NCBI RefSeq assembly: GCF_004010195.1
Contig: NC_057737.1
Span: 19,938,327 to 20,002,326 of the forward strand
DNA length: 64,000 nt
Direction: 5' to 3'
Origin: Chiloscyllium plagiosum
Lineage: Eukaryota
Shown: positions 5,001 through 45,877 of the stretch, in pieces
Numbering within the stretch: position 1 is the first letter of the stretch
How the letters are laid out: the number at the start of each line of letters is the position of its first letter
Position numbers and translations under genes: made by a program
Notes under the pieces: generated by a model
What the model was told of the DNA's origin: nothing
Databases searched by the model: none
What the model saw: the letters and a program-made list of their open reading frames with translations, nothing else

Positions 5001-7333
5001 GGAGAAAGACAACTCCAGTGGTTAGCTGTTTAAAAATCTTTTTGCTTCTGATTTAGACATTTAAAAATCTGTAACCAAGGAAGAAAATGAAAATGTTAGT
5101 ATTTGCACTAACTGTTTCAGACTGAATCTAAAGGAAGATAAAAGGAAACACTAATTCCAGGGGCTAAAAAGCAATATGGTCGAGAATTTACACTTCCTGG
5201 TATGCAGAAGCCAGCGGCACTATTCGAAGTCAGGAGCGTTGTTTTTGACAAGTTTAATCAAACTGGACGAAGTATAACGATTGTCACACTTCTCTGAGGA
5301 GCACACTGGGAATCAAGACCTGCTATTTCCGGAATCATCCCGGAAGTTAGAAATGTTATCAAAACTCAAAATTCCCCAAAGTACCTGTGTTTTAGCCCCA
5401 GGTTAACAGAAAGCATAGACCAGGTTTCAGAAATGCATTCTAGCTTGAGGAAAGAACTCTGAACTATCAAAGTATGACATTACTTGTTAAAATTATAACC
5501 TCCTTATATAGCTTTGCCAATGTGCAAACACAGAAGGACATTAAAAGATTGGTTTTGTGGAGGCAAAACAGGGAACACAGTTCCACGATCCCTGTCCAGA
5601 GGGTTCACTGAGATGATCCTTTTCTGGACTTTCTATTCATCAGTCTCTCTCTCACTCTGTCTCTCTCTCTCTCTCACTCACCCCTAAGTATTTTCTAGTT
5701 CCTTGCAGGAGGCACAGGGTCACAAATTATAATGTCTCTGATTTATTAATTCAAAGCCACAGCTTACAGCAAATGGTGAGAGAAAATAAACTGGCTGTCC
5801 TCAGACCTTGGGTACTTTTTAATGCAGAAAAAAAATATCACCCCCCACTTCCAAAAGTCCAAAAGCTTCTGGCTATATCATCCACATACACAAGATGTTC
5901 AGCTGCCTGCAAGACAATCACATAGTTAATGGCAGGTAGTAGACCTTTGTTATTAACCACATGGTCACCACTCCAAAGAGCAATCAGGTACTTGCTACCA
6001 AATGAATCTCACTTTGTACAGACCCATTGGTGCCAGTTTGAATGCAATGAACTCCCACCACTGGTTGAACAAACAATAGTGCAAGCAACATTCACAATAA
6101 GTGCTCATGGTTTGCTTTTAAAAAATCCAGCCATTCCATCCACAATCCTTGGTTTTTAAAACTGTCCTTTTTTCACTTCAGGCCACAATCAAAAACACAG
6201 AAAAATTAGACAAGGATGTGAACAATGTCAATCTTTAACATCATGGGCAAGAGGATTTGCTATGAAGCATTACAAAAAAGGAGGCTGCTAACAATGAGAA
6301 GCAATTGTCAATTCTCTGAAACTGAGCTGCTTCATGTATTTCACTTTGTACAGAAAAAGCATTGTGATGCTGCCAAGATGTTTAATTTAAGATATGGCTG
6401 CACAGACAGTGGAATATCTTATTGCTCAACACTATCATGTTGACTTTTCATTTTTTATGTTCATAAAATTGTTACGTTTTGAGACAGTGTCTTTAACTGA
6501 GAGTAAATTAAAGGGGATCATGAGTCCTGTTTTTCAGTTTGTCTGATTTTAAAACCAGATGGTTTGATTGTTGGATTTTAAAAAGGTCCAGGATTGTTTG
6601 ATGAATAGGAAAGCTCATTATGTTCACACTTGGAGACAATGGCAACAGCCTCTGTGCTAATGATGTGCTCTGAGCCTCCAAAGTCGCAGAAAAGTGTTCA
6701 GAATGTCAAGTTGTAAATAGTTATGCTTTTAACTGTCCATTTGACTCTAAAAAGAAAGAAAATTGGGTTCGTATGGGTGACTAATCAGTAATTCTACATG
6801 GACAAAGTGCCCATGGGATTCACATTGCCATGGAAATGGGCTTTGAGATGGGAAGGATTTCCAAGGTGCTGCCGAGATCTCTCAGACACTGTTAGTGGTG
6901 CTAAGATTCAGGACAGGAAAAATGTAACTAGAAGCTAAAATTCTCAGTGGTTCAGCATTCTGGATACAGTTGGGAGCTCAGGCTTGGATTGAGAAGACCA
7001 AATTTTTGGAGAATTAGAATGAGGCAAGAAGTTTTGTCTTGCTGTAGCTCAAGGAGGAATCTCTAGGAAAACTTTCACAATAAAAGAACTTCTGGAATTA
7101 AAAATTTTCCAGGCTGGGAATGGAAAAGATCTCAAGTAAACCAGTGAGAGATAACAAATGTCTTGGAGTGCATATCTACCTGAAGGACAATATAATAAAT
7201 ATCTGATAGTGAGTAGGTTGTATCAAAAATTTGTTTTGTAGTTTGATGCATTAGTTACCTATGAATATAAAGTTTAATAAGTAGACCGTTGTTACAGTAA
7301 ATGTCTTTAAACATAATGAATATTCTTTCTTAG

Positions 7334-8550
7334 ACAAGAGTGTGGTGCTGGTAAAGCACAGCAGGAACGTCCTCCCACCCTGCCTCCTGTAAAAATGCTA
7401 TCCCTTATTCCCATCCCTCAGCATCTGCTCCCAGGAAGTCCAATTCTACCAAAGAACACACCAGGTGGCTTTCTTCTTCAAATACTGCAATTTCCCCTCC
7501 CACATGGTCGATGATGCCCTCCAGCACATCTCATCCACTTCCTCCACCTCTGCCCTTGAACCCCACCCCTCCAACTGCAACAAGGACAGAACTCCCCCCC
7601 CAACCCCGTCCTCACCTTCCACCCCATCAACCTCCATATACATCGTATCATCCTCCGCCATTTCTGCCATCTACAAATGGACCCCGCCACCAGAAATATA
7701 TTTCCCTCCCCACCTCTATCTGCTTTCCATAAAGACCATTCCCTCCATGACTCTTTTGTCAGATCCATGCCCCCCACCAAACCACCCTACCCTCCTGGCA
7801 CCTTTCCCTGCCACCACAGGAATTGCAAAACCTGTGCCCACACCTCCCCCTCACCTCTGTCCAAATCCCAAAAGAGCCTTCCACATCCATCAGAGTTTTA
7901 CCTGCACTTCCACACATGTCATTTACTATATCCGTTGCTCCCAATGCGGTCTCCTCTATACTGAGGAGACAGGACACCTACTTGCAGAGTGCTTCAGAGA
8001 ACATCTTTGGGACACCCGCACCAACCAACCCCACCACCTCATGGCCGAACACTTCAACTCCCCCTCCCACTGCGCCAAGGACATGCAAGTCCTGGGCCTC
8101 CTCCATCACCACACCCTAACCACCCAACGCCTGGAGGAAGAACGCCTTGGGATCCTCCAACCAGACAACGTCAATGTGGATTTCACCAATTTCCTCATTT
8201 CCCCTCCCCCCACCTTATGTCAGTTCTGACCTTCCAACTCGGCACAGCCCTCAGGACCTGTCCTACCTGTCCATCTTCCTTCCCACCTATCCACTCTTCC
8301 CTCCTCTCTGACCTATCACCATTACCCCCACCTTCATCTATCTAACGCACTGTCAGCTACCGTCCCCCCAGCCCCACCCACCCCATTTATAGCTCTACCC
8401 GCTCGGCTCACAAGCCTCATTCCTGATGAAGTACTCTTTTCTGAAAAGTCAATTCTCCTGTTCCTCAGATGCTGCCTGACCTACCGTCCTTTTCCAGCAC
8501 CCCACTCTCTACTCTGATCTCCAGCATTTATAACCCTCATTTTCTCGTAG
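7334..8550 (+). mobile_element. Penelope-like element (5'-truncated: RT thumb, Cys linker, GIY-YIG endonuclease, 3' terminal repeat) with 5' inverted terminal piece
   Basis: FTCTSTHVIYYIRCSQCGLLYTEETG is a GIY-YIG motif; PCHHRNCKTC is the linker. 7334-7365 is an inverted copy of the 3' terminus. Flanked by TATT(C/T)TTTCTTAG at 7321-7333 and 8551-8563. Degenerate hammerhead core at 8423-8450. Confidence 0.9.
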
Positions 8551-9601
8551 TATTTTTTCTTAGGACCTGGTGCAGGGGAGTGAATTGGCTGTCCTCTTTT
8601 TAACCTCCCCGGTTGACTACAGCAAAGATTTAATGGTTCTTTATTAACACAGAGCTAAATCTCACTCCAACTGTTTCAACAGAAAAAGAGTAAGGAGCTA
8701 ATTACAAGTCTCTCTTGAGTGAAAGAGAAGAGGATTTTTTTAAGACACAACATAAGACTCAAACAGGCAGATATTGACACTAGGTTAAAAGGGGTTGTGT
8801 CCAATACAAAAGGGAAGAAAGAAGAATACTTAATTTGAAGTCCTTAGGGTTTGCTTAAGGTGTAATGTGTTAAACTGAGACCAGAATTTGACAGGCTATC
8901 CTGGATCATTCACCAGTGTGATATTGTAGATATCATCGCGTTCCTTGTGTTTGCATACCTCACAAATTTATGTTGACAGCAGTTGATTTATTTATCCTGA
9001 GCCAAAAATAGAGAAAGCTTCTTCTGGTTCTCTGGTAAAAATGTATTTCTTGTGCTTTGCCAAAGTATAGATTTGAAATAGGGGTTGTTTATGTCTTCCA
9101 TGTGTGGGCCATCGCTTCCAAGCTGGATAATTATGAGTTTTTTTCATTTCCACTACATGAAACTCATCCATAAATTGTAAATTAAAAATTGGACATACAA
9201 GTCCCTTCATATCTACCTGGTTTTGGTCTTTTGTCTTGTTACTTTCTGTTCAGACAATTTTGCTTATTCCACATTGATTTCCTGGAGCTTATTGCAACAA
9301 GTGTCAACCATATTGTCAGTTTTCCCCCCTTTTTAATACCATTTCTAGTCATGAAAGTCTAAGGCATTAAAATCGGATAATGGAAGTCAAAGGTTGATTG
9401 TCCATAGTTCCTCATTATTATGATCATTATGTAATGCCCACAAAGCCATAGTAATAATCTATTGAATCTTCAACTCATAACTTCATTCCTGCCTCAGACC
9501 ATTTGTTTTGGGATCACACTGAACAATGCCTGTTTTTGGTATTCATTTGTCTCAGGAAGTAATGACTTCACATCTGACTAACAAACTGTATGCCTTTACA
9601 G

Positions 9602-21900: not shown

Positions 21901-22914
21901 AAAATTTTCGCTTCTAGCACTAAGTGTTATGGCAGATCTGAAACCAAGGAGGGAATTCAGCTTGAGGGTAGGACAGGTTTTCCAGAATGGTAATGTTCAT
22001 TTCAGCTCGTTTCACATTCCAGGCGTGGGTAAAATCCCAGATTTTGTGAGCAGGAAGTTCCAAGGCAGGTTGAGATATTCCAGTTTCAAACATCAGATCA
22101 CCATATTTAAAAGGCACCCAGACAGCACCTCACTCTCTGTAACCCAGGAGCATCTTTCAATCCCCATCCCCCTCACCCACTTTTGGAGAAGTCAATGACC
22201 AGGAAACAAATGTTGCCATGCTTTAGCAATCCCTGCAGCTTTTCTTAAAGGCCATCCATGGAAGAAGGGAAGATTTTTTTTTCCCCTATTGATGACTATA
22301 AGACACCATCCTGACTGACAACCTAGACAGTGATGGCTTCGGTGGGCAGCATCTGTGGGCCACTCAAAGGAATCTGGCTCCAGTGCCACAAGAGGATATT
22401 ACGTGCTCCTTGGCTGGGTACCATTGTCTTCTCAATGCTTCATGCCCCTAGGTGTGTGAGGTAACTTGTCCAGTTGCCATTGCAGAGCACCGCGACAGAG
22501 GTGCCAGGCATCTTCATCAGATGCCACATCTGCAATCAATGTCTGTTACATCATTGCAACTACCAACATAGCACAACTGGCATCACAGTGGTTCTGCCAG
22601 CAACACAACAGAAGCAACAATATCTTGAGCAAGAGACCATACCTTGTATTGTGTGCTGTTGTGGGTCCCTTTATCTTAGAAAATATATACTTCCCACTGA
22701 GAGAGTTCAGCAAAATCACCAGGCTGATTCTGGGATGGCAGTTTCATCATATAAAGTGAGATTGGATAGACTGGGCCTTTATTACAAGATGATTTGAGTT
22801 CAGAAGGAGGGAAAAACCTACTGCAGTTATAGAGGGCCTTGGTGAAACAACACAGGAGTGTTATAAGCAGTTTTGTCTCCCTATCTAAGAAAGGATCTAC
22901 TTGCCATAGAGACA

Positions 22915-23006
22915 AGATTAGAGTAGTGCTGGAAAAGCACGGCAGATCAGGCAGCATCCGAGGAGCAGGAAAATCGACGTTTCGGTCAAAGGCCCTTCAG
23001 CAGGAA
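22915..23006 (-). mobile_element. 92-bp PLE-terminus/hammerhead module with 13-bp TSD
   Basis: The minus strand reads attc-CTGCTGA-agggcctttgacc-GAAACGTC-gatt, with one core substitution. Flanks are tgccatagagaca (22902-22914) and tggcatagagaca (23007-23019). Confidence 0.8.
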
Positions 23007-23087
23007 TGGCATAGAGACAGTTCAGTGAAGGTTCATTTCGCTGATGGCAGGACTGTCATATGAGGAGAGGTTGGTCCAATTGGTTCG

Positions 23088-23222
23088 GTTCTGATGTAGA
23101 GTCACCGGACTTGAAACATTAACTCTGCTTTCTTTCCACAGTTGCTGCCAGACCTGCTGAGTTTCTCCAGAAACTTCTGTTTTTGCTTCAGACCTCCAGC
23201 ATCTGCAATTCTTTGCTTGATT
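23088..23222 (+). mobile_element. PLE-terminus module, second family, degenerate hammerhead
   Basis: gttCTGATGTagagtcaccggacttGAAACATTaactctg...gctgccagacctgctgagtttctccag. Related copies at 20275-20350, 26244-26492 and 48193-48300. Confidence 0.7.
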
Positions 23223-23804
23223 TTGAACTTATACTCACCAGCGTTTAAAAGGACAAGAGGGCACCTACTTGAAACATCTAAAATGTTACCAGGACTAGAC
23301 AGACTAGAAACAGGAGGGATGTTTCCCTGGTTGGGAGGTGTAGAACATATTCAGAGGGTGGTCTATCTGTGAGATTAACCACCGCAGAAGGCTGTAGAGG
23401 TTGAGTCACTGAATGTATTTACGATAGAATTTAACAGATTTTTAGATATTAAACCTATAAAGAAGAATAGGGTGAAAACAGAAATAAGGGAGTAAGATGG
23501 AGGATCAGCCATGATCGTATTGGATGGCAGAGCAAGTCGAAGGGCAATGGCCTACTCCTTTACCTGGTTTCTACGTTTCCATTTATTCATTGGTTTTTCA
23601 GAGAATGGGAGAAGATCTTATTAAAACATAAAATTCTGCCAGGGCTAGATAGACTGGATGTAGGGATAATATTCCACGAGGTGGAGGTTTGGAATAAGGG
23701 TTCACTGTCTCAGGATACAAGGTAGACCATTTGGGTCTCAAATAAGGAAAAATTTATTCACTCAAAGCTCAAGTGGTGACTCTGTGGAATTCTCTACCAC
23801 ATAT

Positions 23805-24110
23805 GGGTGACACATTGGCTCACTGGTTAGCACAGCTGCCTCACAGCACCAAGGACCTGGGTTTGATACCAGCCTCGGGTGCCTGTCTGTGTGGAGTTTG
23901 CACATTGTCCTCGTATCTGCGTGGGTTTCCTCCCCACGGTCCAAAGATGCAGATGGTAAATTGTTCAGGGATGTGCAGACTGAGTGGACTTGCCATAGTA
24001 AATGCAGGATTATAGGCTAGGAAGGGTTGGATCTGTGTGGGATGCTCTTCAGAGGGTCAGTGTCCATTAAATGGGCCAAATGGCCTGCTTCCATACTTTA
24101 GGGATTTTAT
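23805..24110 (+). mobile_element. HE1-type V-SINE
   Basis: tRNA-like head (A box tggctcactggttagc; B box gggtttgatacc) and V-domain gtgtggagtttgcac...ctgcgtgggtttcctcc. Confidence 0.85.
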
Positions 24111-24559
24111 AACATGGCTGTAGAGGTCAGGTCACAGAATATGTTTAAGAAAGAAATAGATTTCTAGACACTAAAGCCATCAAAGAGTTTTAGAGAATGA
24201 GAATGTAGCATTGAGATAGAGGATGAGCCATAATCATATTGAATGGCAGAGTGCATTTGATGGGCCAAATGACCTACTCCTTTTTCTATTTTTTATGTAT
24301 CTATCTGTCAGGGGTCACAATTAAAATATACAAAGAGGTAAAAGACTTAGCAGTCCAGGTATCATTCAGTGTTTCTCATCCCAAGTGGGAGAACATACAC
24401 AACTGGTAGGTTTTTTTTGGTCAAAGGCTAGATAAGGACAATGACACAAGCACAGAAGATAGCTTTTTGAGTTGAGCCCCCTGTTGATTTCAGTCCTACA
24501 TGCCTGGCCCTGTCACATTTGCCCAGGTAAGCTGCATCCCTAACACTAACTGATTGCAC

Positions 24560-24647
24560 AAAGTTAAAAATCACACAATACGAGGTTATCGTCCAACAGG
24601 TTTATTTGGAAGCACTAGCTTTCAGAGTGCTGCTCCTTCATCAGGTG
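24560..24647 (-). ncRNA. Minimal type I hammerhead ribozyme motif (24613-24647) in a PLE-terminus fragment
   Basis: Minus strand: CAC-CUGAUGA-A-GGAGcagcaCUCU-GAAA-GC-UA-GUG. Core intact, stem I CAC:GUG, palindromic AGCU stem III. Confidence 0.65.
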
Positions 24648-25010
24648 GACAAAGAATCACCTAGATGCTGAAGGAGCTGAGTAAACAGAGAGTTACTTGT
24701 GTGAAACAGGTTAAGGTCAGAAACCTTGACCCACCTGAAACATTCTGAGAACTTAAATGCAACGGTTTAATCCATCATTGGAAAACAGACCTATTGCCTC
24801 CTGCCCAATTACAGTTCCCACTCACCTTTCTCAAAGCTTTGAGCAAGATGGAAAATTACACCCAAAGTATCTAGTTCCACGAAACGGAAACTGAACTACA
24901 GTGGCGAATTCAAAATAGTAACAATGGCCTGAGAGTTGTTTCAAAAAAACTAAATTAATATATTGGTAAATCTTCCATTAGGTGTAAGAAAATTGTGGCA
25001 TTACCCATCA

Positions 25011-25503
25011 AAGTTAAAAATCACACAACACCAGGTTATAGTCCAACAGGTTTATCTAGAAGCACTAGGTTTTGGAGCGCTGCTCCTCTGGTTGCTGTGG
25101 AGCAGGATCACAAGACACAGAATTTATAGCAAAAGTTTACAGTCATGCAACTGAAATGATATATTGAACAAACCTAGATTGCTATTAAGTCTTTCATCTT
25201 TTAGAATGGGTTGCAGGTTTTGGTTCATTAATATGAAAATCAGAGAACTTATTTTTAGTCACATTCTAAAGATAACTTAAGGTTTTATAAAAGGAGCTCA
25301 CATCTCAGCTCAGACAATGCGTTAAAGGTGTGAGGTTAGAGTCTGTCTGTATTCCAATCTTGAGTCAGACTGGTTCTGCTACCTGATGAAGGATCAGCGC
25401 TCCAAAAGCTAGTGCTTACAAATAAACCTGATGGACTATAACCTGGTGTTGTGTGAGTTTTAACTTTGTCCACCCCAGTCCAATACCGGCTCCTCCACTT
25501 CAT
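25011..25503 (+). mobile_element. Palindromic non-autonomous PLE-derived element with hammerhead remnant and perfect 12-bp TSD
   Basis: TSD CATTACCCATCA at 24999-25010 and 25504-25515. Arms 25011-25087 and ~25390-25467 are inverted repeats. At 25383 it reads CTGATGAaggatcagcgctccAAAAgcta (GAAA changed to AAAA). Confidence 0.85.
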
Positions 25504-26243
25504 CATTACCCATCAAGATTATGCATCAATATGACCCATCCATAGAAGCACAAATTTTCTGTTAATTAAATTAAAATTCCTCAAGATGTTATGGGTCTGT
25601 TGAGCACTTCAGGTAAGAGATTTCATTGAATCCATGGAAAAGCAAGAAGCATTAATTATTTTCCTCTCTCTTTACGTCTCTTGTCTGTTTTTTCATAGAA
25701 TTTATAGACAGTTAATCAAAATCAAAAGAACAAATGTGACTCACTGAGTTAAGAACAAAGAAAGATGTTAGAATGTATAAAAATCAAGTTGAGTTTGTTT
25801 CAAGAAATACCTTTCCTGTGATGTAGGTATACTCTCCCCAGTGTTTCATTTCTAGTTTGTGATTTCCTTACCTTAATTATCTGTGATAAATATGGCACAC
25901 CGTGAAATTAACAAGGATTCTAGCACTCGCCGTTATTAATGTGCAAATCAAACAGGAGCTTCAAGTGAGTGCCAACGGATTGTTAAAAGCAAAAATCTGG
26001 ACAGTGCTGTCTGAAAAGTCCTCCATGTGCTGCACAAACCTGACAACTCACCATCACGCTCCCCATTCAAAATTCTTAAACCTCGCAAAGTTCATATATA
26101 ATATACACACAGACTAAACACTCTACAGATATTTGGTGTTTGAATCTTCAGACTGGAATGTCCAATCTTCTTAATAGCTTTAGAAATCTCATTTGCAGCC
26201 AAAGCCCCTCTCTGATGCTGAAAATTAACTATTGCAAATGTGA

Positions 26244-26492
26244 AATAAAAATCAAAAGAACTGCAGATGCTGGAAATCAGAAACAAGAACAGAAATTGCT
26301 TCCTGGGGAAGTCTCTGTGTGATTGCTGGAAATGGCTTAGCAGATCTAGAAGCATCCATGGCGAGAAATCAGAGTTAATGTTGTGGGTTCAGTGACCCTT
26401 TCTAAACTCTGAAGGTCACTGAACTCAAAATGTTAATTCTGATTTCTCACCACAGATACTGCCAGACCTGCTGAGCCTTTCCAACAGTTTTC
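26244..26492. mobile_element. Palindromic PLE-terminus element (tail-to-tail), degenerate hammerheads
   Basis: gagaaatcagagttaatgttgtgggttcagtgacc versus ggtcactgaactcaaaatgttaattctgatttctc form an inverted repeat. Flanks attgcaaatgtga (26231-26243) and attacaaatttga (26493-26505). Confidence 0.75.
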
Positions 26493-26644
26493 ATTACAAA
26501 TTTGAGGTCTTCTGCATTCAAATTTTAATGATTGTTGGAAATCTTGTTAAAACTGTAAATTATACCTTTACTTTATTTCCTTTCCTCATCTCTCTCTCTT
26601 CGAATTCAATCATTCTGTCTTCTCTTAGTTTTCTGTACCTGATT

Positions 26645-27192
26645 TAGTGTTCAATAGACAATAGTTGGATGCAGTTGGGGGGTAATATAATAGTTTGATG
26701 GGAGGGTGGAGTGGATAGGTGGGAAGGACGGTGGACGGGTAGGACAGTTCAAGAGAGTGGTGCCAAGTTGGAAGGTTGGATCTGAGATGAGGTGGGGGGA
26801 GGGGAGAGTTGGAAACCAGTGAAGTGGACGTTGATGCCGCGTGGTTGAAGGGTCCCAAGGTGGAAGGTGAGGCATTATTCCTTCAGTTGGTGGGTGGCTT
26901 TGATTTGGCGGTGGAGGAGGCCCAAGATTTGCATGTCCTTGGGGGAGTAGGCAGAGGAGTTGAAATGGTTGGCCATAGGGCAGTGGGGTTGTTTAGTGTG
27001 TGGGTCCTAGAGATGTTCCCTCAAATGTTCTGTGAGTTGGCATCCTGTCTCCCTGATGTAGAAGAGACCACATCGAGATCAACGGACACAGTGGATAAGG
27101 TAGGTGTATGCGCAGGAAAATCTCTGCCGGATGTGAAAAGATCCACTGGAGCCTGGGATGGAGGTGAGGGGAGAGGTGTGGGAGCAGGACAC
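26645..27192 (-). mobile_element. Penelope-like element fragment (GIY-YIG region and 3' UTR)
   Basis: Reverse complement is homologous to 7830-8390 and 44360-44780 (e.g. tacatcagggagacaggatgccaactcacagaacatttgagggaacatctc). Confidence 0.85.
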
Positions 27193-27290
27193 AGTTAGAT
27201 AAACATTTAATCTGACATCATTTTGGACTCTATTAATCTTGAAACTCCCTCTGGGTTAGTAGATTAACATTTCCTCAGTAACCACAGTGA

Positions 27291-27524
<234 letters not shown>

Positions 27525-29187
27525 TAATGTTCTACAATAACACAGTAACTTACCTGGTACAATAGGTAGACAGGAAAATGCCAGTAGTGCTCCAGGATGA
27601 CTCATTCCTTCTCAGCTGTGAATTGCAGAGCTGAAAATATGTTTAAAAGAATTCCATATTTATCTTTTCGCCACAGGAAAGTGAATGATTTGTAAATGCC
27701 ATGGTACTTTTCTGGCTGCTTTATTTTCAGCAGTTACCTCCTGATTCGAGAAAGACTTGATCCTTAAGTGAAATCCCACCTGGAATGCAATCACATCCAT
27801 TCAACACTTTGGTTCATTTTAGTTTAGGTTAGAAAGACAACTGAGACAGAGACCTCAGCTGGAGACAGAGTGAATCTGCCAGAGTTGTACAAGGCACCAG
27901 TCAGACTCAAACATAAATCCAGATTGGCACAAACTAATGGTTATAGCAATCCCCTGTGGCGATTATTTATAAAATAATAACTAAGGATAAAATAACTTGA
28001 AACATACGATAAATCATAAAGGAATGATTCAGTTTGTGAAACATGCATAAATGTTCTTTGCTGGTTCGGTTATTTTTAAGACAGTCATATTTATAGTATA
28101 GGCTAGATTTTATTGACGGACAGATCACAACCACCCCCCCGCCCAATCCTAAACTAAATAGTCTGTTAACACTTTGTCAATGGTGGGGTGGGGTGTCTGG
28201 ATTAATCCAGAGTCAGACCTCGCTCCCTCAAGGGCAAGGAGGCCCATTCTGTCGTTCTAGATGCAGCAGAAGGCATAGAGGTTACTGCAGTGAGTACGAC
28301 CAGTGCCCATGAAGACATGAGGGTGTCTTTGGGACCTCAGACCAGGGATATTAGGCTCGAATAGCTGGGAGACACCAGTGAAATAGGGGAAGGGGCATGG
28401 GGAATCAGGTTAGAGAGACCAGGGTCAGAAGAGGAAAAGGGGAGGTTTACCACCTTGGGGTTGGGATTGAGCAACACCACCACCCACTGCCAATCGGCAC
28501 AACCTGCAAAGCAGGCACCTTCCTACTTGACTATCAAAGCAGTATCATTCCAAGAAACGCATCAACGGTCATTCCGTGTGCACAACGTCTTCACTTGTCC
28601 TGCGATGTCATTCTGCTGTTTTACAATCAGGCCAGCTTCCACATGCAGCTTCTTTGTCAATAGCCAAAAGTCGATGACATCTTTAATCACCAACCACAGT
28701 TATTTATATGGAAAGCGTCTAAGCTCTCGTTGCTAAATCTTGACTGAAAACTATCATTATTGCAAAAGGAATTTTTAATGTCGGATGAACTGCAGCACCA
28801 TCTATACTCAACATGATGCAGTGCAAGAGTCAATTGTGTGAACTGGAAATGAGAGTTGTAATGATAGCTATTAAAGCTGGTCACCAGGATTCAATGACTG
28901 AATCATTTGTATAAACACACAGATTTATGACATTGTCAACAGCACTTTTTGTCTCACACAAAGAATTAGCGATACATTTGAAGATGACATTATGTGCCAC
29001 TTACTGCATATATTAAACTTAAAAAAAAATGAACGTGTTCAAAGATGATGCAGAGAAAAGCACCTTTGCTTTCCTCAGAAGTGACAGCTGATTAACTGGG
29101 AATAAATTAGACTAAGTACATTAACAAAAACTGGATGAGTGCAGCCCCATGGTCTACTGCTCAGATCCCACGGTCACTGAAGTGCTG

Positions 29188-29504
29188 TTAGATTAGATTA
29201 GATTACTTACAGAGTGGAAACAGGCCCTTCGGCCCAACAAGTCCACACCGACCCGCCGAAGCGCAACCCACCCATACCCCTACATCTACCCCTTACCTAA
29301 CACTATGGGCAATTTAGCATGGCCAATTCACCTGGCCTGCACATCTTTGGACTGTGGGAGGAAAGCGGAGCACCCGGAGGAAACCCACGCAGACACGGGG
29401 AGAACGTGCAAACTCCACACAGTCAGTCGCCTGAGGCGGGAATTGAACCCGGGTCTCTGGCGCTGTGAGGCAGCAGTGCTAACCACTGTGCCACCGTGCC
29501 GCCC
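29188..29504 (-). mobile_element. HE1-type V-SINE, young near-intact copy
   Basis: Minus strand GGGCGGCACGGTGGCACAGTGGTTAGC (A box)...GGGTTCAATTCCCG (B box), then the V-domain and a (TCTAA)n tail. Many CpGs are retained. Confidence 0.92.
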
Positions 29505-29887
29505 GTAACTGAGTGACCTTTGTACTACTTTGACTGTCTCTGTTAGAGCAGGAATCGATGTGATGTAACTCAGGAATGCAATGGAGCCCACAGCATAGAA
29601 TTCCCGACACCATCTTATCCCAGGAAGTAAAGTAGCCTCAGCAATTCATTCCTCCTTCCTCACAGTCACTTCAAGTGAAGTAGGTTTGGGGAGAGATGAC
29701 TTGGTCATTGTTTCCAGTAGAATGTGGACTACCCAAATTGCAATGAAACTGTCTGTCCTTTGCTCATCAGGAATCGTGTTGTAAGATACCTAACCTCCTA
29801 AAAGAACACTGTATGACAAATGAGAGGCTGGCTTCTTGGAGACTAGGCTGTCCCCTGCATGCTTGGTTGATGACAACTCTGAGCAGG

Positions 29888-30543
29888 TGTTATGGACTAG
29901 GCCAGACCACTCAAAACATTCTTAAGTAGGCAGCCCAGACTATAACTTTGCAATTTGTTTCACTAAATGCACGGTGAAAATTACGCAGAGTAAGTTAGCA
30001 AGGTTGACTACCTGGTTAAAAACAGACAAAAAATTATTCACAAAATTACACCATGAAACACAAAAAACAGATTAAAGAACCCCTACAGAACTCAGTCTAT
30101 CCAAGCTAGACTTAATTATGCTGTTCCAAATACAAACAACAGTCCCAATAAGCAAACCCGCTTAGAAACCAGTATAAATGAATAGAACAGATGCTTATAG
30201 GTTGAAGTTAGACAGGCAGAGAGAGAGAGAGCGCATTTGTTTCCACATAGCTCACTGTTGAATTCACAAGTAGTTCTGGACTGGACTGAACTGAACTGCT
30301 CAGCTAGAGAGCTGACCACTCCCCTTTCATTGTACAGGTCACTTCTAAAACATGACTGCTTTGGCCTGAAGTCTCATCTGTTTACATATAAACAAAAAGG
30401 CCTCTCAATACGCTTTAATCCCTGTACCAAACCAGACTAATTGGCACCGAGAATGGTTTATTACCCATCTGAAAAAAAAATAAGGACATAGTATCCTTGA
30501 GAAAAGGAACAGCTTTTAGAGAAAAGAACCCAGCTTTGTGACA
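29888..30543. mobile_element. Probable solo LTR related to 2401-3023
   Basis: TGTTATGGACTAGGCCAGACCACTCAAAACATTCTTAAG...TTTGTGACA with TG...CA termini. Flanks (cagg/gaga) do not form a clean TSD. Confidence 0.6.
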
Positions 30544-31416
30544 GAGACTAGGCTTGATACCACCTTGCTCTGCAATCAATTCCAGGCCCCAACCAAGAGC
30601 TCTCATCAAGCAGATCATTGAAGTCGTTGAACACTGGTTCTGCTGCCTGGACAGATCTAATTGCATAGCACAGGGAAGCTCACATAACATGCATCCCACA
30701 TAATGGTGGCTTACTGTTTTCTGTCCAATTTTGGTTCCACATGAGGACACACAAGTAGGACTTTGAGGGTGAAGCAGGAAGATTATAACATCTTTCGGCA
30801 GGCAGAACACTTGAGTAGCACGCAGAAATTCAGCTCAATAACCCCAGCTCTCCATATTTAACAATCAGGTCAAACATCTTCCCCAGTCCTTTCACACAAC
30901 AAATTGCATCCAGCCAAAGACTGTTATTATTTGTGCAAACTAATGTTGCAGGGTCACCAGTTACTTTTACAGTGTTCCATACACAAAGCTTTCAAGGAGG
31001 TTTTGTAATTGGAATGACTGATCATTACTACTGTTAATTATTACCTTGATAATAGCCACAAGTGGCTATCTAATGTGGTCATGAGCAAGTCTAGTGCTTT
31101 CACAAGGTTTGCTTCAAGTGGTTGCAGCGTGGGAGGTGCAAGGTAACTGCACTTAGTAACCTCTGGGCCTTTAGCACTGAGAGGTCCCACTCCAGGTTCA
31201 GTAGTTATTGGAGCGCTTCATGTTTCTGGCACCAGTGTAAAGCAGTGCTTTAAGGAAAAAGGGAAATAGAGGCTGCAGCCATAATCTTATCAAATGCAGA
31301 TTATGCTCAGTGAATTGGATAGCCCACTCATCCCTCCCACTCCAAGTTCCTCTCCAGCTTTGAGGAGATAGCCTGGCACTAGGAAAGCAGACATAGACAA
31401 TATTTGGGCTTCACAC

Positions 31417-31853
31417 TCATTGCTGTGGAGAACATTGTCTGTGTCCCCTACCACAGCCATGTTCCTATTGCTGTGGGGAACATTATCTGTGCCCCCTACC
31501 ACAGTTATGTTCCTATTGCTGAGGGGAACATTATCTGTGCCCCCTACACAGCTATGTTCCTATTGCTGTGGGGAACATTATCTGTGCCCCCTACCACAGC
31601 CATGTTCCTATTGCTGTGGGGAACATTACCTGTGCCCCCTACCACAGCCATGTTCCTATTGCTGAGGGGAACATTATCTGTGCCCCCTACCACAGCTATG
31701 TTCCTATTGCTGAGGGGAACATTATCTGTGCCCCCTACTACAGCTATGTTCCTATTGCTGTGGGGAACATTATCTGTGCCCCGTGCCACAGCTATGCTCC
31801 TATTGCTGTGGGGAACATTATCTGTGCCCCCCTACCACAGCTATGTGCCTATT
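31417..31853. repeat. 48-bp minisatellite, ~9 copies
   Basis: Unit CTATTGCTGTGGGGAACATTATCTGTGCCCCCTACCACAGC(C/T)ATGTTC repeated head to tail with few substitutions and two 1-bp indels. Confidence 0.97.
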
Positions 31854-32098
31854 TCTTCCTCACACTTGGATAACTTCCTGGACCACAGTGCCATTGTCTG
31901 TTTGCCCAGTCCTCCCCCTAGTGTCCATTCTTACCCACACAGTTTGCAAGAACCCAGTAATTGTTGGACAGTTGTAGGGTCCAGGCTGCATGAAGGCAGC
32001 CAGCTGGCCCCTCACACTTGCGTCACTTGCAGTCACTCCCTACTATCCCTACTCATGACCTAAATCTGCGGGGTGAGACTGCCTCCTGGAACAAATTA

Positions 32099-32246
32099 GA
32101 CAAGCAGGAGGCTGGAAGAACACAGCAAACCAAGGAAGTTACACCTGCAACGTCGACTTCTCTATCTCCTGATGCTGACTGGCTTGCTGTGTTCTTCCGG
32201 CTTCCTGCTTGTCTACCTTGGATTCCAGTATCTGCAGTTTTCTTGT
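32099..32246 (+). mobile_element. Short fold-back PLE-terminus element with TSD
   Basis: agacaagcaggaggctggaagaacacagcaa versus ttgctgtgttcttccggcttcctgcttgtct form inverted arms. Flanks ctcctggaacaaatta (32083-32098) and ctcctgcaacaaatta (32247-32262). Confidence 0.75.
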
Positions 32247-33239
32247 CTCCTGCAACAAATTATCCAGGTAACTTTCTGCTTCCTTGATGTAATCTCTATT
32301 TTCCTGTCCATTCCCTGCCCTTTGACTCATCAATCAAATATATCTCTACATCTGCTTTAAAAATATCCAATGACACACCTCCATCAGTCCCTAAGGAAGG
32401 GGGTTCCACAGATCAATGACCCTCTAAGTGAAAGAAATATGACCCTCATCTCTCTCTTAAATGGGAGACTGCTGCATCCCTCCAGTTCTCAACTTCCTAA
32501 AATGATGAAACTTCTTCCAGCATCTATCCTATCAAGTCCAGTCAGGATCTTATATGTTTCAATAAGATCATCTTTTAATCATGAACCTAAATTGTGGTGG
32601 ATACAGGCCTGATCTGTCTAACCTTTCCTCATAAGACCTCCCCTTCATCTCAGGAATAAGCTGTATCATTCTACCTACCTCTATCCACGCTCCCCTACAC
32701 AACAGGCAACACCAAGTCCCAAAGTGTGTGACACACCTAGAAAAAGAGGATCAAGGATAAGCATGTAGTGACAAGGTAGAAGCTTCTGGACCATAGACTC
32801 CCATTGTAAGCATGAATAAAGGATAATAAGGCAAGACCCTAAACATTCTGCACTGTGTGGTCTACGGCTTCACCATCTGTGTTTATGAGACTGGCAGCTC
32901 CAACTGAGTGATGATCAGTTGTAGTTGTCACTGTCTCTTTACTAGAGCAGATTTTAGGGACTGAATGACAGAGTCTCTTCTGCTTTGTTTGTATCACTGC
33001 CACAGATTAACATCAGAATCTTGCCACCATATTTTATGTGGCTCACAGAAGGTTAGATATTGGCTAGTGCTTTGTAGATAACTCTACAGCCTCCATTGAA
33101 ATAGTACGATTGGATCTTTTACATTCACCTCAAAAGGGTGGGCTTTGGATTTAACCTCTCATTGAAAAGGCAGCAGCTCTGACAGTGGATTGCTCCCTCA
33201 CTATTGCACGAGACCGTCTTGGTTTTCGTGTATTGAGTC

Positions 33240-33527
33240 CACGCCAACCCTCTGAAGAGCATCCCATCCAGACCCACATCACTGTCCCTGTAACCCTGCA
33301 TTTCCCATGGCTGACCCACCTAAACTGCAGGCTATGGGGCAATTTCAGCATGGCCTATCCACCTAACCTGCACATCTTTGGACTGTGGGAGGAAACTGGA
33401 ACACCAGGTGGAAACCCATGCAGAATGTGCAAACTCTGCATGGACCATCACCCAAAGGTGGTTTCGAACCCAGGTCCCTGGTGCTGTGAGGCAGCACTGC
33501 TATCTACTGAGCCACCATGCCACCCCT
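33240..33527 (-). mobile_element. HE1-type V-SINE
   Basis: gcatggcctatccacctaacctgcacatctttggactgtgggaggaaac...gaacccaggtccctggtgctgtgaggcagc, homologous to 29188-29504. Confidence 0.88.
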
Positions 33528-35246
33528 TAGGGACTGTGGAACTATCACACACTATAGAGTGAATATAGTGAACTCCATCAGCACCAGCCAAAAAGCATCA
33601 GTTAGTTCAGCTGCCTGACTCAGTGCCTCATTGAAGTTTGGGTTCTTAAAACTGAATCCCTTTCATTTTTTTTCTTATGTCTCATGTAGAAGAGCAAACA
33701 ATAAAATCATCACTAAGTGATTTATATCTAAAGAATTTTTATTCACACTCCATTTAACACACGGAAGGTAAAATGTCAAATTCTTCAGCTTATCACTGAA
33801 TTCTGTGTGTCATGGTCAATTTGGCAAAATTACATTTAACAGTTTGAGTAAAAGAATATTGTGAAGTTAGCGCCACCTGCTGGAGTTTAATATCATTACA
33901 CCCAGAATTAATACTGTCCCTGAGGTCTGACAGGCTTAACCTGACTGTCTCATCTACTTCTGTTGGCACATCACAATTCTCCTTCTTCTCCAAGACTTAA
34001 AACTGTTCTTCATTCAAGCCCATGATGGGGCCTCGGTCTGATGTAATGCTGCTCCAAATTTCAGGGCACTTTGTGTGGTCACCATTGACTGACCCAACTG
34101 AGTTATTGTGGGATGCCCATGAGTGAGAAGACAGGCAAGTGGGTCTTTAAATTAGGGTACCATACCATCAGCAGTGTGCTCATCAAATACCACACAAGTA
34201 ACCACCACTCACAAAGCCATTGGTGCCTTTAAAGGTGAATTCTCTTAAAGGCAGATGTATCTACAACAAGTGTTGTAGATACTCAATAATCCAATTTTCT
34301 TCCAAATAGTTACACATTATAATTGGCCGTAATTAAATACGGCACACTGTTTGTAATTTGGGTACACTTATTTTAAGAACACCCATCTGACTAGACATAC
34401 TCTATGTGAGTACGTCACAGATTAAAAACGAGTTACTGCATCTAACACTACAAATCCAATCAAAATCAACATTTTAATAAAAATTTCCAACGGACTTCAG
34501 GCCAATTCACGTCCAGCAATCTGCTCTGAAAACTCTTCTCATATTTCCACAGCTGTGACAAATTCCACTACTACAGCAATAACAATCACAATTTGAAAAC
34601 AGTCAAGAGCAATGAAAATACAACAACCCACAACATAGTTTTTTTTAAAAAAGCTAATTCGCTTTATCTTCCAACGATAATGAATCCACTAAAAAAAACA
34701 GGATCCAGACCAGATCATCATCTTTGCCATTACCTAGTCATTCCTTCAGAGAGCCGCAGTCCATCCATGTCCATCTTGTTGAAATTTGACCAATAGTTTT
34801 TGAGATTTATTGTTTACAGGCAAACAGACTAACACAGGGCTAAAACATTCCCTTCTCGTGCCTTCAGTGGGGGAGATGATTGTCTTCTAAGATGCAAATT
34901 AATGCGGGGAAATTGCCCATATTCACAGACCTCTGCTGAGCCCTGCCTGCACAGTATACAAACAGATTGCAGGTAAAATTTATTTCTGACAAAAGCAATT
35001 TTGACAGTATATATAGTAGATGATGTTCGTTCTGTCACTCAAATTTCCCAAAATGATTAAGAATATCCCACACTTGTTTCCTCTAGCCTTTCCCTTCAGT
35101 GGAATAAAACTGAGACAGTACTGTGGAAAAATACCTCACTGCACCGTAGCTATTATTTTTTGCTTTTTAGATTTAGGAAGATATGGAGATACGTAAAACC
35201 TACAGAATTTTAAAAGATAGTTGAACAAACTAGCAATATAATTTTA

Positions 35247-35443
35247 TGATTTGGAGATGCCGGTGTTGGACTGGGGTGTACAAAGTTAAAAATCACACAA
35301 CACCAGGTTATAGTCCAACAGGCTTTATTGGAAGCACACTAGCTTTCGGAGCACCGCCTGATGAAGGAGCGGCGCTCTGAAAGCTAGTGTGCTTCCAGTT
35401 AAACCAGTTGGACTATAACCTGGTGTTGTGTGATTTTTAACTT
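35247..35443. mobile_element. 197-bp hairpin element (PLE-derived) with 12-bp TSD
   Basis: Arms 35283-35352 and ~35374-35443 are near-perfect inverted repeats. Flanks aatataatttta (35235-35246) and aataaaatttta (35444-35455). Same family as 24560 and 25011. Confidence 0.88.
35355..35389 (+). ncRNA. Minimal type I hammerhead ribozyme motif, intact core, sense to sez6
   Basis: CGC-CUGAUGA-A-GGAGC(GGC)GCUCU-GAAA-GC-UA-GUG. Stem I CGC:GUG, 5-bp stem II, palindromic AGCU stem III. Predicted cleavage after 35386. Confidence 0.7.
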
Positions 35444-36090
35444 AATAAAATTTTAATTCACTTTTAAGGAAAAACACATCACCAATATATTTTTTATTTA
35501 AACTTTAAAGCAATTTCTTTAATATTAAATGCAACTTTTTTACCATATTTGAGTTGTTAGAGATGATGATTTGTTGTTCTCTCAGACAAATTTCTCCCTC
35601 CTCATCCTCACCCCACAATGAGTATTGACTTATCATGGAATATAGCTCTGTGGATGAAAGTGCCCCTGCTCAGTGAGTTTTCAAGAATTATTTAATAAAT
35701 GGAGCTTTTATCCAAACTAGCTTCAAGTTGACTAGAAGCTAGTTTCAAGCTGACTTCCAACTGAAGCCATTAATTAATGACCAGAAAATGAGCCTTTGTC
35801 AGTTTTTGCTTAGCTAACTCAGCTTTCACTGAGACCAAATATAGAATTCCTCACCCTGTCTTGGCTGTTGCAGGGTAACTCATAATCAAGGAAGGGGCTT
35901 TTCCTGGTCAAGTTAGTTTGATAATTCTTCTATGAAGTGTCCTACTGTGTTAAAATGCTGTGGAAACGCAAGTTATTGTTTTTATTACACAACTCCGCCA
36001 TTGGAAAATGTCTACATTTTGAGAATTGAGAGCAGCAGCAATAGAGGACACAGTAGTGAGCAGCAGGGTTTGGTCAGGGAACTTAACACT

Positions 36091-36432
36091 GGGGGGAGCA
36101 CGCAGGCTCAGTGGTTAGCACTGCTGCCTCACAGCACCAGGGACCCGGGTTTGATTCCTGCCTGGGGTGACTATCTGTGTGGAATTTGCATATTCTCCCT
36201 GTGTCTGCATGGGTTTCCTCCGGGTGCTCCGGTTTCCTCCCACAATCCAAAGATGTGCAGGTTAGGTGAACTGGCCATGCTAAATTTCCCATAGTATTAG
36301 GTGCATTAGTCAGAGGTAAGTATAGGGTAGGGGAATGTGTCTGGATGGGTTACTCTTCGGAAGGTCGGTGTGGACTTATTGGGCCAAAAGGCCTGCCTCC
36401 ATACTGTAGGGACTCTAATCTCTAATCTAAAA
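36091..36432 (+). mobile_element. HE1-type V-SINE ending ~73 bp upstream of a sez6 exon
   Basis: caggctcagtggttagcactgctgcctcacagcaccagggacccgggtttgattcc, then the V-domain and a ctctaatctctaatctaa tail. Confidence 0.9.
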
Positions 36433-36505
36433 ATCCAGTTGATGGCAATACAGCACAGTTCAATTCAGATCATCTTAATTTTATTTTTCTGTTTTCTCAA
36501 CCCAG

Positions 36506-36697
36506 TCATATTCTGCACCGATCCCGGTAACGTCGATCACAGCCGCAGGATTATCACTGATCCCAAGTTTTCAATTGGCTCCACAGTGCAGTACATTTGT
36601 AACAAAGGCTACGCTCTGGCCGGGAGCAATATACTGACTTGTTACAACAGGCAGTCTGGGAATCCTAAGTGGAGTGACAGGGTTCCTAAGTGTATCC
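36506..36697 (+). CDS. sez6: SEZ6 exon: Sushi/CCP domain (192 nt)
   Basis: Acceptor gttttctcaacccAG, donor C|GTgagt. Encodes (I)IFCTDPGNVDHSRRIITDPKFSIGSTVQYICNKGYALAGSNILTCYNRQSGNPKWSDRVPKCI. Phase 1-1. Confidence 0.95.
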
Positions 36698-37158
36698 GTG
36701 AGTACAGAACCTTTGCTAGTTATCTTTGGTGTTCTAAACGTCATATTAGATTTGTTGTGCATGTAAACCTTTCACCTGGGAAGCTTCTCTCTTTGTGTTG
36801 GCTTGTGCAGAATAGAAATGAGCTATTCCCATCTATCTTGCACCATATCCTTCGGCATCAACTCTCACCCTTTCAGTCAATAAATTGGCTCACGTTGCAA
36901 ATTCACTTCAGAAGAGGTAATAATTGAGGGGAGGAAAGGTTCCACGAGAGAAGTATTTATTTATTCGGCATTTCCAAAGTAACGTAAACCTTTATTTCTG
37001 CCATTATTCTAGGAAATCTGTACCCTCACAAAAGCTTTTAACTCATTTCTGAAGGGCAGTGCCCAAAATTGGACACACAACTCCACCCAAGACAGAGTTA
37101 GTGTTAGGTATAGGTTTAGTATCTGCTTTTTGTTATACCTTGTCCCTCTATTTGTAAA

Positions 37159-37303
37159 GCTGGAGATCAGAGCTAATGATGAAGAAGGGCTCATGCCCGA
37201 AACATCGATTCTCCTGCTCCTTGGATGCTGCCTGACCTGCTGCGCTTTTCCAGCAACACATTTTCAGCTCTGATCTCCAGCATCTGCAGTCCTCACTTTC
37301 TCC
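37159..37303 (+). mobile_element. PLE-terminus/hammerhead module with 5' inversion, inserted in a CR1 remnant
   Basis: Exact flanking repeat tccctctatttgtaaagc (37143-37160 and 37301-37318). gctggagatcagagct is inverted relative to agctctgatctccagc. Core reads aTGAAGA-agggctcatgccc-GAAACATC. Confidence 0.85.
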
Positions 37304-37400
37304 CTCTATTTGTAAAGCCTAGGATCTCATTTGCTTCATTAATTGCTCTGTTAACCTGTTCGGACACCTTTGCATCTCCCTCTACTTGCACCACCTTTAC

Positions 37401-42745: not shown

Positions 42746-44563
42746 AAAGTCTCTACATGTGCTCCAGTGGCATTTTTGCTGCCAAACTAATCACATTGGC
42801 TTAAGCTCCCCCCTACTCATATTGAAACTCATCTCTAGCAGATAGGGACTTCTCACTGTAGTCATGTCCTCCTGATTCCAGCCTCCAGGGTAATCTGCTT
42901 ATGGATGGCTAGCTTGCCAGCCTCTACAAAGCAAGTTGTCAGTCTGGGAGCAGAGATTTGTGAAGAGTCTCAAAAGGGTGACGTGCTGCTCCAGTGGAAG
43001 GATCAGGAAACTGACTGGCCGATTTCAAGAAAATATTTTATTTTAGCTAAGAACCTGTGCTGAGCCACAATCTGTGAATATTTGTGCACCCCAATCATCT
43101 CTGCCTGTCTCGCTTCTCTCACTTACCTCTGAATGCTGGGTACCAATATCTAACAAGAGTCTGTGCAGCTTACAGAGGGTATAAATGGCACAAGGATAGG
43201 TAATGGCTAAGTGGTATTATCACAGACTCTTTACCCAGAGACCTAGGTAATATTCTGGGGGCCTGGGTTCAAATCGTGACAGATGGTAGAATTTGAATAC
43301 AGTGCAAATCTGGAGTTAAGAGTTTAATGACAACCACCTCCTCCAAGACTTCCGTTTCCCCGGCCCCCAACGCCTCATCCTTACCATGGATATCCAATCC
43401 CTCTGCACCTACATCCGCCATGACCAGGGTCTCCAAGCCCTCTGTTTTTTCCTCTCCCGACGTCCAACAGTACCCTTCCACCGACACTCTAATTCGTTTG
43501 GCTGAACTGGTCCTCACCCTTAACAATTTCTCCTTCGAGTCCTCCCTCTTCCTCCAGACCAAAGGGTAGCCATGAGTACACGTATGGGCCCCAGCTATGC
43601 CTGTCTCTTTGTTGGCTACGTAGAACAGTCGATCTTCGTAATTACACCGGCACCACTTCCCACCTCTTCCTCCGCTACATTGATGACTGCATTGGCGCCA
43701 CCTCGTGCTCCCGCGAGGAGGTTGAGCAATTCATCAACTTCACCAACACATTCCACCCTGACCTTAAATTTACCTGGACCATCTCTGACACCTCCCTCCC
43801 CTTCCTGGACCTCTCCATCTCCATTAATGACCACCGACTTGACACTGACATTTTTTTACAAACCCACCAACTCCCACAGCTACCTGGATTACACCTCTTC
43901 CCACCCTACCTCTTGCAAAAATGCCATCCCGTATTCCCAATTCCTCCGCCTCCGCCGTATCTACTTCCAGGAGGACCAGTTCCACCACAGAACACACCAG
44001 ATGGCCTCCTTCTTTAGAGACCGCAATTTCCCTTCCCACGTGGTTAAAGATGCCCTCCAACGCATCTCGTCCACATCCCGGACCTCCGCCCTCAGACCCC
44101 AGCCCTCCAACCGTAACAAGGACAGAACGCCCCTGGTGATCACCTTCCACCCTACCAACCTTCGCATAAACCAAATCATCCGCCGACATTTCCGCCACCT
44201 CCAAAAAGACCGCACCACCAGGGATATATTTCCCTCCCCACCCCTTTCCGCCTTCCGCAAAGACCGTTCCCTCCGTGACTACCTGGTCAGGCCCACGCCC
44301 CCCTACGACCCACCCTCCCATCCTGGCACCTTCCCCTGCCACCGCAGGAACTGTAAAACCTGCGCCCACACCTCCTCACTCACCTCTATCCAAGGCCCCA
44401 AAGGAGACTTCCACATCCATCAAAGTTTTACCTACACATCCACTCATATCATTTATTGTATCCGTTGCTCCCGATGCGGTCTCCCCTACATTGGGGAGAC
44501 TGGGCGGCTCCTAGCAGACCGCTTTAGGGAACATCTCCGAGACACCCACACCAATCAACCAAA

Positions 44564-44603
44564 NNNNNNNNNNNNNNNNNNNNNNNNNNNNNNNNNNNNN
44601 NNN
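44564..44603. other. Assembly gap (40 N)
   Basis: Run of n characters. Confidence 1.
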
Positions 44604-44855
44604 CATCAATGTGGACTTCAACAGTTTCCTCATTTCCCCTTCCCCCACCTCACCCTAGTTCCAAACTTCCAGCTCAGCACTGTCCCCATGACTTGTCCTA
44701 CCTGCCTAGCTTCTTTTCTACCTATCCACTCCACCCTCCTCCCTGACCTATCACCTTCATCCCCTCCCCCACTCACCTATTGTACTCTATGCTACTTTCT
44801 CCCCACCCCCATCCTTCTCTAGCTTATCTCTCCACCCTTCAGGCTCTCTGCCTTT

Positions 44856-44891
44856 ATTCCTGATGAAGGGTGTTTGCCCGAAACGTCAATT
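44856..44891 (+). ncRNA. Minimal hammerhead ribozyme motif in PLE terminal repeat
   Basis: attc-CUGAUGA-A-GGGU(GUUU)GCCC-GAAA-CG-UC-aatt. Core intact, palindromic ACGU stem III, stem I weak. Confidence 0.65.
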
Positions 44892-45877
44892 TTATTGCTC
44901 CTCGGACGCTGTCTGAACTGCTGTGCTCTTCCAGCACCACTAATCCAGAACCATGAATCATTGTCAATTATTGGAAAAAAAACTTTGAGTTCATGAATGC
45001 CCTTCAAAGAAGAAAACTGCAATCCTTACCCTGATCTGGCCTACATGTGACTCCAGATCCACAGCAATGTGATTGGCTCTTAACTGTCTCCTGGGCAATT
45101 AGGGATTGGCAATAAATGCTAGTCCAGCCAATGACTGCCTCATCCCATGAATGAATTTAAAAAAACACAGTGGAGCAATGTTTCCTTTATTAGTAAATGA
45201 TTAAGAAATGGTGCACCCTTTCACCCTGATAGTTATTTTTACTGAACCTGTTCAGACATGTTATAACACACCTGTGGTGGATAAAGGACTTGAAACCAGG
45301 CCTCCTGGCCCAGTGTAGAGACAATACCACTGTTCCACATAACTCTTCCTTCTGCCGTTATATCGCAGCATCCTGGACACATTTAAAGTCAAGTGCCACC
45401 CTGTGTAGTTTTCCATCTCTTCAAGCCTCAGAGGTATCCGCTGAATCTTTGAAGGGAAGCAGAATTCCTGGGCCTGCACATTGTTGCCTTACTGTTAAGC
45501 AAGTTAACAGGTCTCAGACCACACACTGAATTTCTCACATGAATACCTAGTGCAGAATAACAATGCTTTATTTAAGCAGGAAACTGCAATCAGCATGGTG
45601 AAACCTCTTCCAGACACTGTAATTTAAATGAGTTAATTTTATGCAGTGTGCAAACAGAAATTCACTTGATTGGTGCATTATCATAGCACAGAAATAAATG
45701 TCTAATACTAAGCTACATCCATATCTAATGGTGCTGATTGGTAAAGCCATAGTTTCTGAAAACAGCCAATGGATACAGCCTTTACTCATTTAAATACATA
45801 GTTTGGGTTGAGAACCTCCTTTGGCCTTACAGTTTTCAGTTGATTTTGGTTTCTGCATCATACCTGGTCTTTTCAAT

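Follow-up and report, generated by a model that had tools for sequence, protein, structure and literature searches.

The window analysed here, a stretch of 64,000 nucleotides from the 3.56-Gb genome of Chiloscyllium plagiosum (NC_057737.1, positions 19,938,327 to 20,002,326), holds six short inserts with terminal sequence of Penelope-like elements (PLEs). They are probably ribozyme-module insertions of four endonuclease-bearing (EN+) Penelope families, copied at both nicked strands from the capped front end of the sense RNA; they are likely to have been copied from the initial ~130 bases of the capped element RNA and not to be a separate self-copying mini-element. As such they are EN+ PLE insertions of an already described kind, and their layout, with an inverted pseudo-long terminal repeat (pseudo-LTR), a 30-40-bp tail at one end and a target-site duplication, is known from the portions available of PMC3846280 and PMC8557442. 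Added to this layout here are a sharp stop before the ribozyme core, a module before the open reading frame (ORF) and an extra G at the front edge.

The sample comprised the window with the 200 kb that follow it, plus 200 kb from each of four other contigs (1.02 Mb without N); the eight module references derived represent four families, A to D. The module is about 130 bases long, with a front edge of ATTCC or ACAATCAC, a minimal hammerhead and a tail of about 35 bases. The family majorities carry the core and the palindromic stem III, in which the three stem-III words of an earlier note on this DNA (ACGU-C, AGCU-A and ACGU-U) are all present. Family A is presumably Poseidon-like. Copies of the module, here called arms, numbered 377 above the score cut (out of 384), with 206 in 103 head-to-head pairs and 171 solo, corresponding to about 270 insertions and about 100 pairs per Mb. 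By extrapolation the genome-wide total would be a million copies; one family A pattern of 31 bases is by itself matched exactly 50,569 times. The six inserts of the window, E1 to E6, are the following, with outer coordinates that include the duplications:

22902..23019, minus strand: E1, solo tail-less family A arm (22915-23006)
22902-22914 / 23007-23019: duplication of E1, 13 bp, 1 mismatch
24999..25516, no strand: E2, family B pair with a perfect 13-bp duplication (0 mismatches); inverted tail-less arm about 25012-25383, direct tailed arm 25381-25503
26231..26505, no strand: E3, old family C pair; tailed arm 26244-26403 (minus), tail-less arm about 26406-26492 (plus)
32083..32262, no strand: E4, family D pair; short tail-less arm 32099-32132 (minus), tailed arm to 32246 (plus)
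35235..35455, no strand: E5, family B palindrome with a 12-bp duplication (1 mismatch); tailed arm 35247-35352 (minus), tail-less arm 35353-35443 (plus)
35358..35386, plus strand: intact minimal hammerhead core (CUGAUGA, stem II, GAAA, GCUA) within E5, the only one among the six
37143..37318, plus strand: E6, young family A tailed arm (37180-37303)

All six were confirmed at the positions given in the earlier note, to within one or two bases. They hold PLE terminal sequence, as it had claimed, though not exclusively: the inverted arm of E2 also includes about 290 bases of 3' untranslated region (UTR). An inverted arm is present in five of the six, in agreement with its count of inserts that fold back, and in E6 this piece, which precedes the tailed arm, measures only about 16-21 bases; the arm of E1 begins exactly at the ATTCC front edge. 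The recognisable core that had been credited to four inserts was an overstatement, as the core read from the sequence is intact in E5 alone, where it sits within a 75-base hairpin (92% complementary); E1 shows a single change (CUGCUGA), E2 has AAAA in place of GAAA, E6 lacks C3 and carries a change in stem III, E4 has no CUGANGA core, and E3 is decayed and has no core. A direct repeat flanks all six, at 12-19 bp instead of the 12-13 bp first reported: those of E4 (16-19 bp, 1-2 mismatches) and E6 (18 bp, 0 mismatches) come to 13 bp once bases common to the element ends are removed, that of E3 (13 bp, 2 mismatches) is weak, with a score of 7 that lies within the control range, and that of E5 is marginal, with a score of 9 just above it. 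Across seven copies these scores range from 7 to 18, against a maximum of 8 in about 60 random position pairs. A search for empty sites of the six inserts and of the copy at 7 kb gave no adjacent paralogous matches; the host of E1 is a long interspersed nuclear element (LINE), diverged paralogous copies of which continue uninterrupted from left-flank-like into right-flank-like sequence. An Rfam scan of the window returned no match to a hammerhead model, and six arms fold no better than shuffled sequences (z from -1.07 to +0.42). On E5, Rfam gave MIR845 below threshold.

The outer ends of the arms follow a simple rule. Their 3' ends are bimodal in every family, with one mode at the end of the tail and the other about 30-44 bases before it, and pairs combine the two: one tailed and one tail-less arm are found in 79 of the 84 classifiable pairs of the sample (19 more are unclassifiable) and in 117 of 126 pairs in search loci. 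A duplication is present in 63 of the 103 pairs (control 7/300). In young pairs its median length is 12 in family B (48/67 pairs) versus 15 in family A (57/75; p=8e-12), with values of about 12 in B and 14-15 in A to which chance matches contribute less than one base; the length is family-specific, and the constant endonuclease stagger of 12-13 bp proposed earlier does not hold. The duplications are AT-rich (64-68% versus 60%). For nine of the 63 duplicated insertions, host repeats provided paralogous empty sites, and in all nine the commonest overlap equals the duplication length; the single copy that the earlier note expected at empty sites is therefore seen in every testable insertion of the sample, and among the six inserts in none except E1, via its diverged paralogues.

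At the other end, the arms stop sharply in front of the ribozyme. In a set of 182 young A arms, the 10 bases ahead of the core hold 53 of the 5' ends, with their peak on the A of ATTCC, the 30 bases beyond hold 5, and 39 arms extend further still; in family B, 23 of 57 arms end within 10 bases and none at -21 to -40. Matches number 1598 at the front edge versus 233 five bases inside it. The edge sequences, TCATTCC (A1), TTATTCC (A2) and TCAGTT (C), resemble the initiator consensus. Most arms pass through the ribozyme cut site, so that cleavage is not needed; stalling at the ribozyme fold would be expected to halt copying on the 3' side of the fold, not at its 5' edge. The description of the inserts as extreme 5'-truncated PLE insertions with a constant stagger thus came close, except that the truncation is non-random and the stagger varies.

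The front edge is, moreover, frequently preceded by a G. Genome-wide, and with the contexts supplied by the commonest joints of the partner arm excluded, a G stands before ATTCC in 989 of the 1598 matches, the other 609 having A or T there, and the background share of G is 34%; a control five bases inside the edge gave 30 G in 100 (counted by eye; Fisher p=6e-10 versus the front edge). Junctions rather than long copies account for 29 of 30 inspected G loci, and long copies do not carry this G at the front edge. For family B, the 100 matches listed include 14 with G versus 2 with A before the edge in non-long copies without a genomic C (counted by eye), and G is also enriched in the search loci (12/14 vs 54/138). 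On balance we lean towards a cap-derived origin of the extra G. In three loci (L229, L235 and L250, near position 1500) the module's seven leading bases occur twice at the front edge, as from run-off slippage.

PLE-like coding sequence lies upstream of some arms for all eight references, hence for families A, B, C and D; for family C2 this concerns 3 of 35 arms, not all of them convincing. In long copies the terminal repeat is linked to an ORF with reverse transcriptase (RT) and, at the C-terminal end, a GIY-YIG domain, the latter a weak match in Pfam, and thirty family B copies reach for scattered lengths, from 7 to about 930 bases, into the 3' UTR and the end of the GIY-YIG-like ORF. The module occurs at both places, before the ORF start and behind the 3' UTR: one locus (L313) has the order module, tail, ATG and an ORF that reaches the RT region, another (L237) leads from the front edge across the tail to the first codons, the sequence behind the tail continues likewise at six more places, and the ORF of family A starts behind the tail. 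The tail ends in a pyrimidine run and then TAG or TCG, directly before the ORF start (L237:1620-1640; A and C majorities); for a splice-acceptor-like role of this tail end, with an intron ending behind the tail, no spliced read was found in the RNA reads examined. At three places (G000:C1:50117178, C1:50067374 and L196:1471-1530) a piece of ORF start abuts, head-to-tail, the front edge of a different module; such joints may record jumps from the run-off end that give rise to partial tandems (pseudo-LTRs). A further, third fixed start site some 110 bases behind the tail was considered and is unsupported, its apparent end having been fixed by the query.

In the mechanism that we propose, the front edge would be the transcription start and the template a capped, sense RNA, for which ribozyme cleavage would be dispensable. 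The enzyme would nick both strands 12-15 bases apart, with priming at the tailed site from one nick and at the tail-less site from its counterpart. Synthesis begun in the 5' module copy would run off at the cap after 90-130 bases and leave a stump, the run-off often adding a C opposite the cap; the two copies would then be joined via microhomology or short filler. Copying begun in the 3' module copy would instead yield longer insertions with random 5' ends. The centre joints of 41 young short pairs comprise 21 without filler, 14 of these with 1-3 bases of microhomology, and 20 with filler. Inversion by priming from both target ends, with microhomology at the centre, is known from twin priming in L1, and an extra cap-templated 5' G from full-length L1 insertions; the two L1 copies derive from different stretches of the RNA, whereas in the present pairs each derives from the same module and the tail sets them apart. 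Two-ended priming on a capped sense RNA gains genomic evidence that can be counted, in the form of the one-tail rule, the sharp stop and the extra G, and the mechanism predicts the start site to the base, at the front-edge A, which lies 4 bases ahead of the core in family A and 8 in family B.

Several observations weigh against this mechanism or parts of it. The one-tail rule is broken in 5 of the 84 pairs (2 two-tailed, 3 with no tail), and only 22 of the 171 solo arms have a findable duplication (control 6/300). Four of the 182 A arms begin exactly at the ribozyme cut, so that cleaved RNA may sometimes be used as template. As to the G, family A shows no enrichment in the search loci (8/20 vs 26/77, p=0.6); a second internal control, at +77, gave 8 G in 13, a ratio equal to that at the front edge, 6 of the 8 reading CTG and possibly representing internal deletions; the G of a pair often comes from the partner arm; and in the 30 G loci it lies within the duplication in 4 and within a local repeat in about 5 (by eye). 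RNA reads show no start at the front edge: in one of four runs, the organism of which may not be that of the window, 2210 reads map to both strands, 96% of them continue into unlike sequence, and neither starts nor ends pile up; the rows shown for this run contain no raw-read joint, and another run gave 0 reads. These module reads may be passengers in host transcripts. Finally, the products do not tell the source of the template, full mRNA or solo module.

The comparison with known systems covers the available portions of the works cited. The insertions resemble complex insertions of EN+ PLEs in the head-to-head inverted terminal copy, the one-sided tail, the duplication with its empty site and the initiator (Inr)-like start in the terminal repeat. 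They differ in being mostly module-only (about 200 bases) at the pair density given above, and in their duplications of 12-15 bp versus 8-10 bp (PMC3846280, PMC8557442); counts are given here, unlike in those portions, for the one-tail rule, the 5' stop and the G, and the portions also leave open how the inverted ends arise and whether sense or antisense RNA serves as template. In Drosophila, Penelope has an internal promoter of Inr and downstream promoter element (DPE) in the pseudo-LTR (PMC2377424). For Poseidon of Anolis it was found in vitro that both strands are nicked and extended, that two internal start sites bound the tail, and that ribozyme cleavage is dispensable (PMC11167929); the two end points bounding the tail and the AT-rich targets recur here, and the genomic pattern, set alongside these findings, fits one start site per nick. 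The ORF of Anolis Poseidon starts in stem II, that of family A behind the tail. By term search, the available text of PMC11167929 does not discuss inverted insertions, duplications or cap run-off, on which its supplements may bear. The minimal hammerheads described from PLEs have a type I core and a palindromic stem III, with many single copies or opposite-strand pairs ascribed to truncated PLEs (PMC4209133), and the modules share all of these features; the available passages of that work contain no analysis of junctions, duplications or ends, and its main text lacks the word 'shark'. In the literature searched, mostly by listing, no study of a cap-derived G or a one-tail rule in PLE stumps was found, and supplements may bear on both.

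It is unlikely that single modules are instead re-copied in trans in the manner of a short interspersed nuclear element (SINE), a stump with its front edge carrying its own promoter and both start sites, its transcript restoring an identical unit with no need of a terminator, and many stumps descending from stumps. Most arms are indeed module-only (92 of the 103 pairs are at most 300 bases long), long copies are very few in family C2, and in a rotifer a pseudo-LTR alone was enough for mobilisation in trans (PMC3846280, in its available part). However, every family has long copies with upstream coding sequence, no stump-only sequence variant has been demonstrated (no tree was run to look for one), and since both routes yield identical products, nothing favours re-copying. 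A rather doubtful extension of the proposed mechanism would make the stumps a million-copy fossil record of Penelope integration from capped, unspliced sense RNA, in which each intact stump, because promoter and start sites all lie within 130 bases, is a ready template: a ribozyme-bearing, SINE-like polymerase II element without tail or terminator.

That the inverted arm forms through self-priming (fold-back), perhaps with antisense RNA as template, is quite improbable; the part seen of PMC3846280 puts this forward for the Penelope elements of rotifers. Fold-back would agree with the sharing of subfamily variants between the arms of a pair, which are discordant at 40 of 536 sites in A (7.5%) and 27 of 180 in B (15%), against 38-39% after shuffling; the same agreement means that one RNA or one source locus usually serves both ends, and rules out two different RNAs as the rule. 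Cross-family pairs were not found within 60 bases among 241 pairs. Against fold-back, three or more diagnostic sites separate the arms in 3 of 72 A pairs, and a further locus (L011) joins arms of two family B variants, so that two templates are needed there; the stop and the G are situated at the sense 5' edge; and of 41 pairs, 27 have a tail-less arm that extends further 5' than its partner (13 a tailed arm, with one tie), a layout that fold-back of a tailed first strand cannot yield, since the partner then has a tail that fold-back could not have copied. Two arms are themselves chimeric, L200:1500-1650 (minus strand), a family A module with a family B tail, and L191:1430-1620, in which upstream and tail-end sequence of A2 encloses an A1 module; they suggest template switches between RNAs of different families.

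The view of the palindromes as units amplified whole from masters via circular or hairpin RNA, akin to miniature inverted-repeat transposable elements (MITEs) or retrozymes, is very improbable and largely refuted. The fixed outer ends and the very high copy number would suit it (the family B centre pattern has 1931 exact matches, some counted on both strands), as would recurring centres: among 100 listed unselected matches the commonest B centre takes about 5 rows and that of E5 one, and the latter recurs in 10 of the 30 best E5 matches. The earlier note, which offered such self-propagating units as its second option, expected them to show many copies with identical internal junctions; 39 of the 41 centres are distinct, however, so that the palindromes are not amplified units, and the 100 listed centres are very diverse. 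Copies with the E5 centre carry differing stem-II variants, one of them having arms of two variants, and the core is intact in one of the six inserts. Non-LTR retrozymes of animals form head-to-tail tandem repeats that are cut to unit length (PMC7229834; bioRxiv 10.64898/2026.07.22.740005, in the parts available). The modules are like them in being non-coding, in their type I hammerhead and in their kinship to the PLE terminal repeat, and unlike them in being dispersed as single or head-to-head copies with ends that ignore the cut site: only four of the 182 A arms begin at the cut, tandem arrays are absent among the 29 same-strand neighbours of the sample, which include a few partial tandems of the PLE kind, and the RNA reads, from which circles cannot be excluded, show no pile-up. 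Membership in MITEs and retrozymes fails on the tested features. For annotation it matters that such hairpins, at a density of about 270 insertions per Mb, may be mistaken for MITEs, retrozymes or microRNA precursors.

Plain debris of random 5' truncation, which would suit the scattered end points of long arms such as the thirty of family B, hardly deserves credence and is refuted as the sole account by the pile-up of ends (53 in 10 bases versus 5 in the next 30, and 1598 front-edge matches versus 233 five bases inside).

The window contains further Penelope copies:

7321..8563 including duplication, plus strand: longer family A copy in which the inverted tail-less arm (7334-7365) is followed by ORF end, 3' UTR, module and tail
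23088..23214, plus strand: extra family C tailed arm
24555..24648, minus strand: extra solo tail-less family B arm with a readable core
43455..44950, plus strand: long family A copy whose RT and GIY-YIG coding sequence is broken and whose end is the tail-less site

The first of these, the coding copy at 7334-8550, has the inverted 5' piece and the 13-bp duplication (1 mismatch) that the earlier note described. The two extra arms were missing from its list, and neither has a convincing duplication; none was found for the copy at 43455..44950, the GIY-YIG match of which is weak (E=0.0049, under the Pfam cut-off). Further old terminal arms, of families A and C2, lie at 4822-4886, 20257-20352 and 48194-48290, two of which were examined and are without a clear duplication. 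An internal PLE fragment at about 26700-27190 on the minus strand consists of the endonuclease region and 3' UTR, without a terminal module. A Sushi-domain exon is found nearby, at 36514-36693 on the plus strand (E=8.5e-11), and suggests that the six inserts lie in introns. At 31397-31875 the window holds a 48-base minisatellite of about ten units, which is spanned by an open frame.

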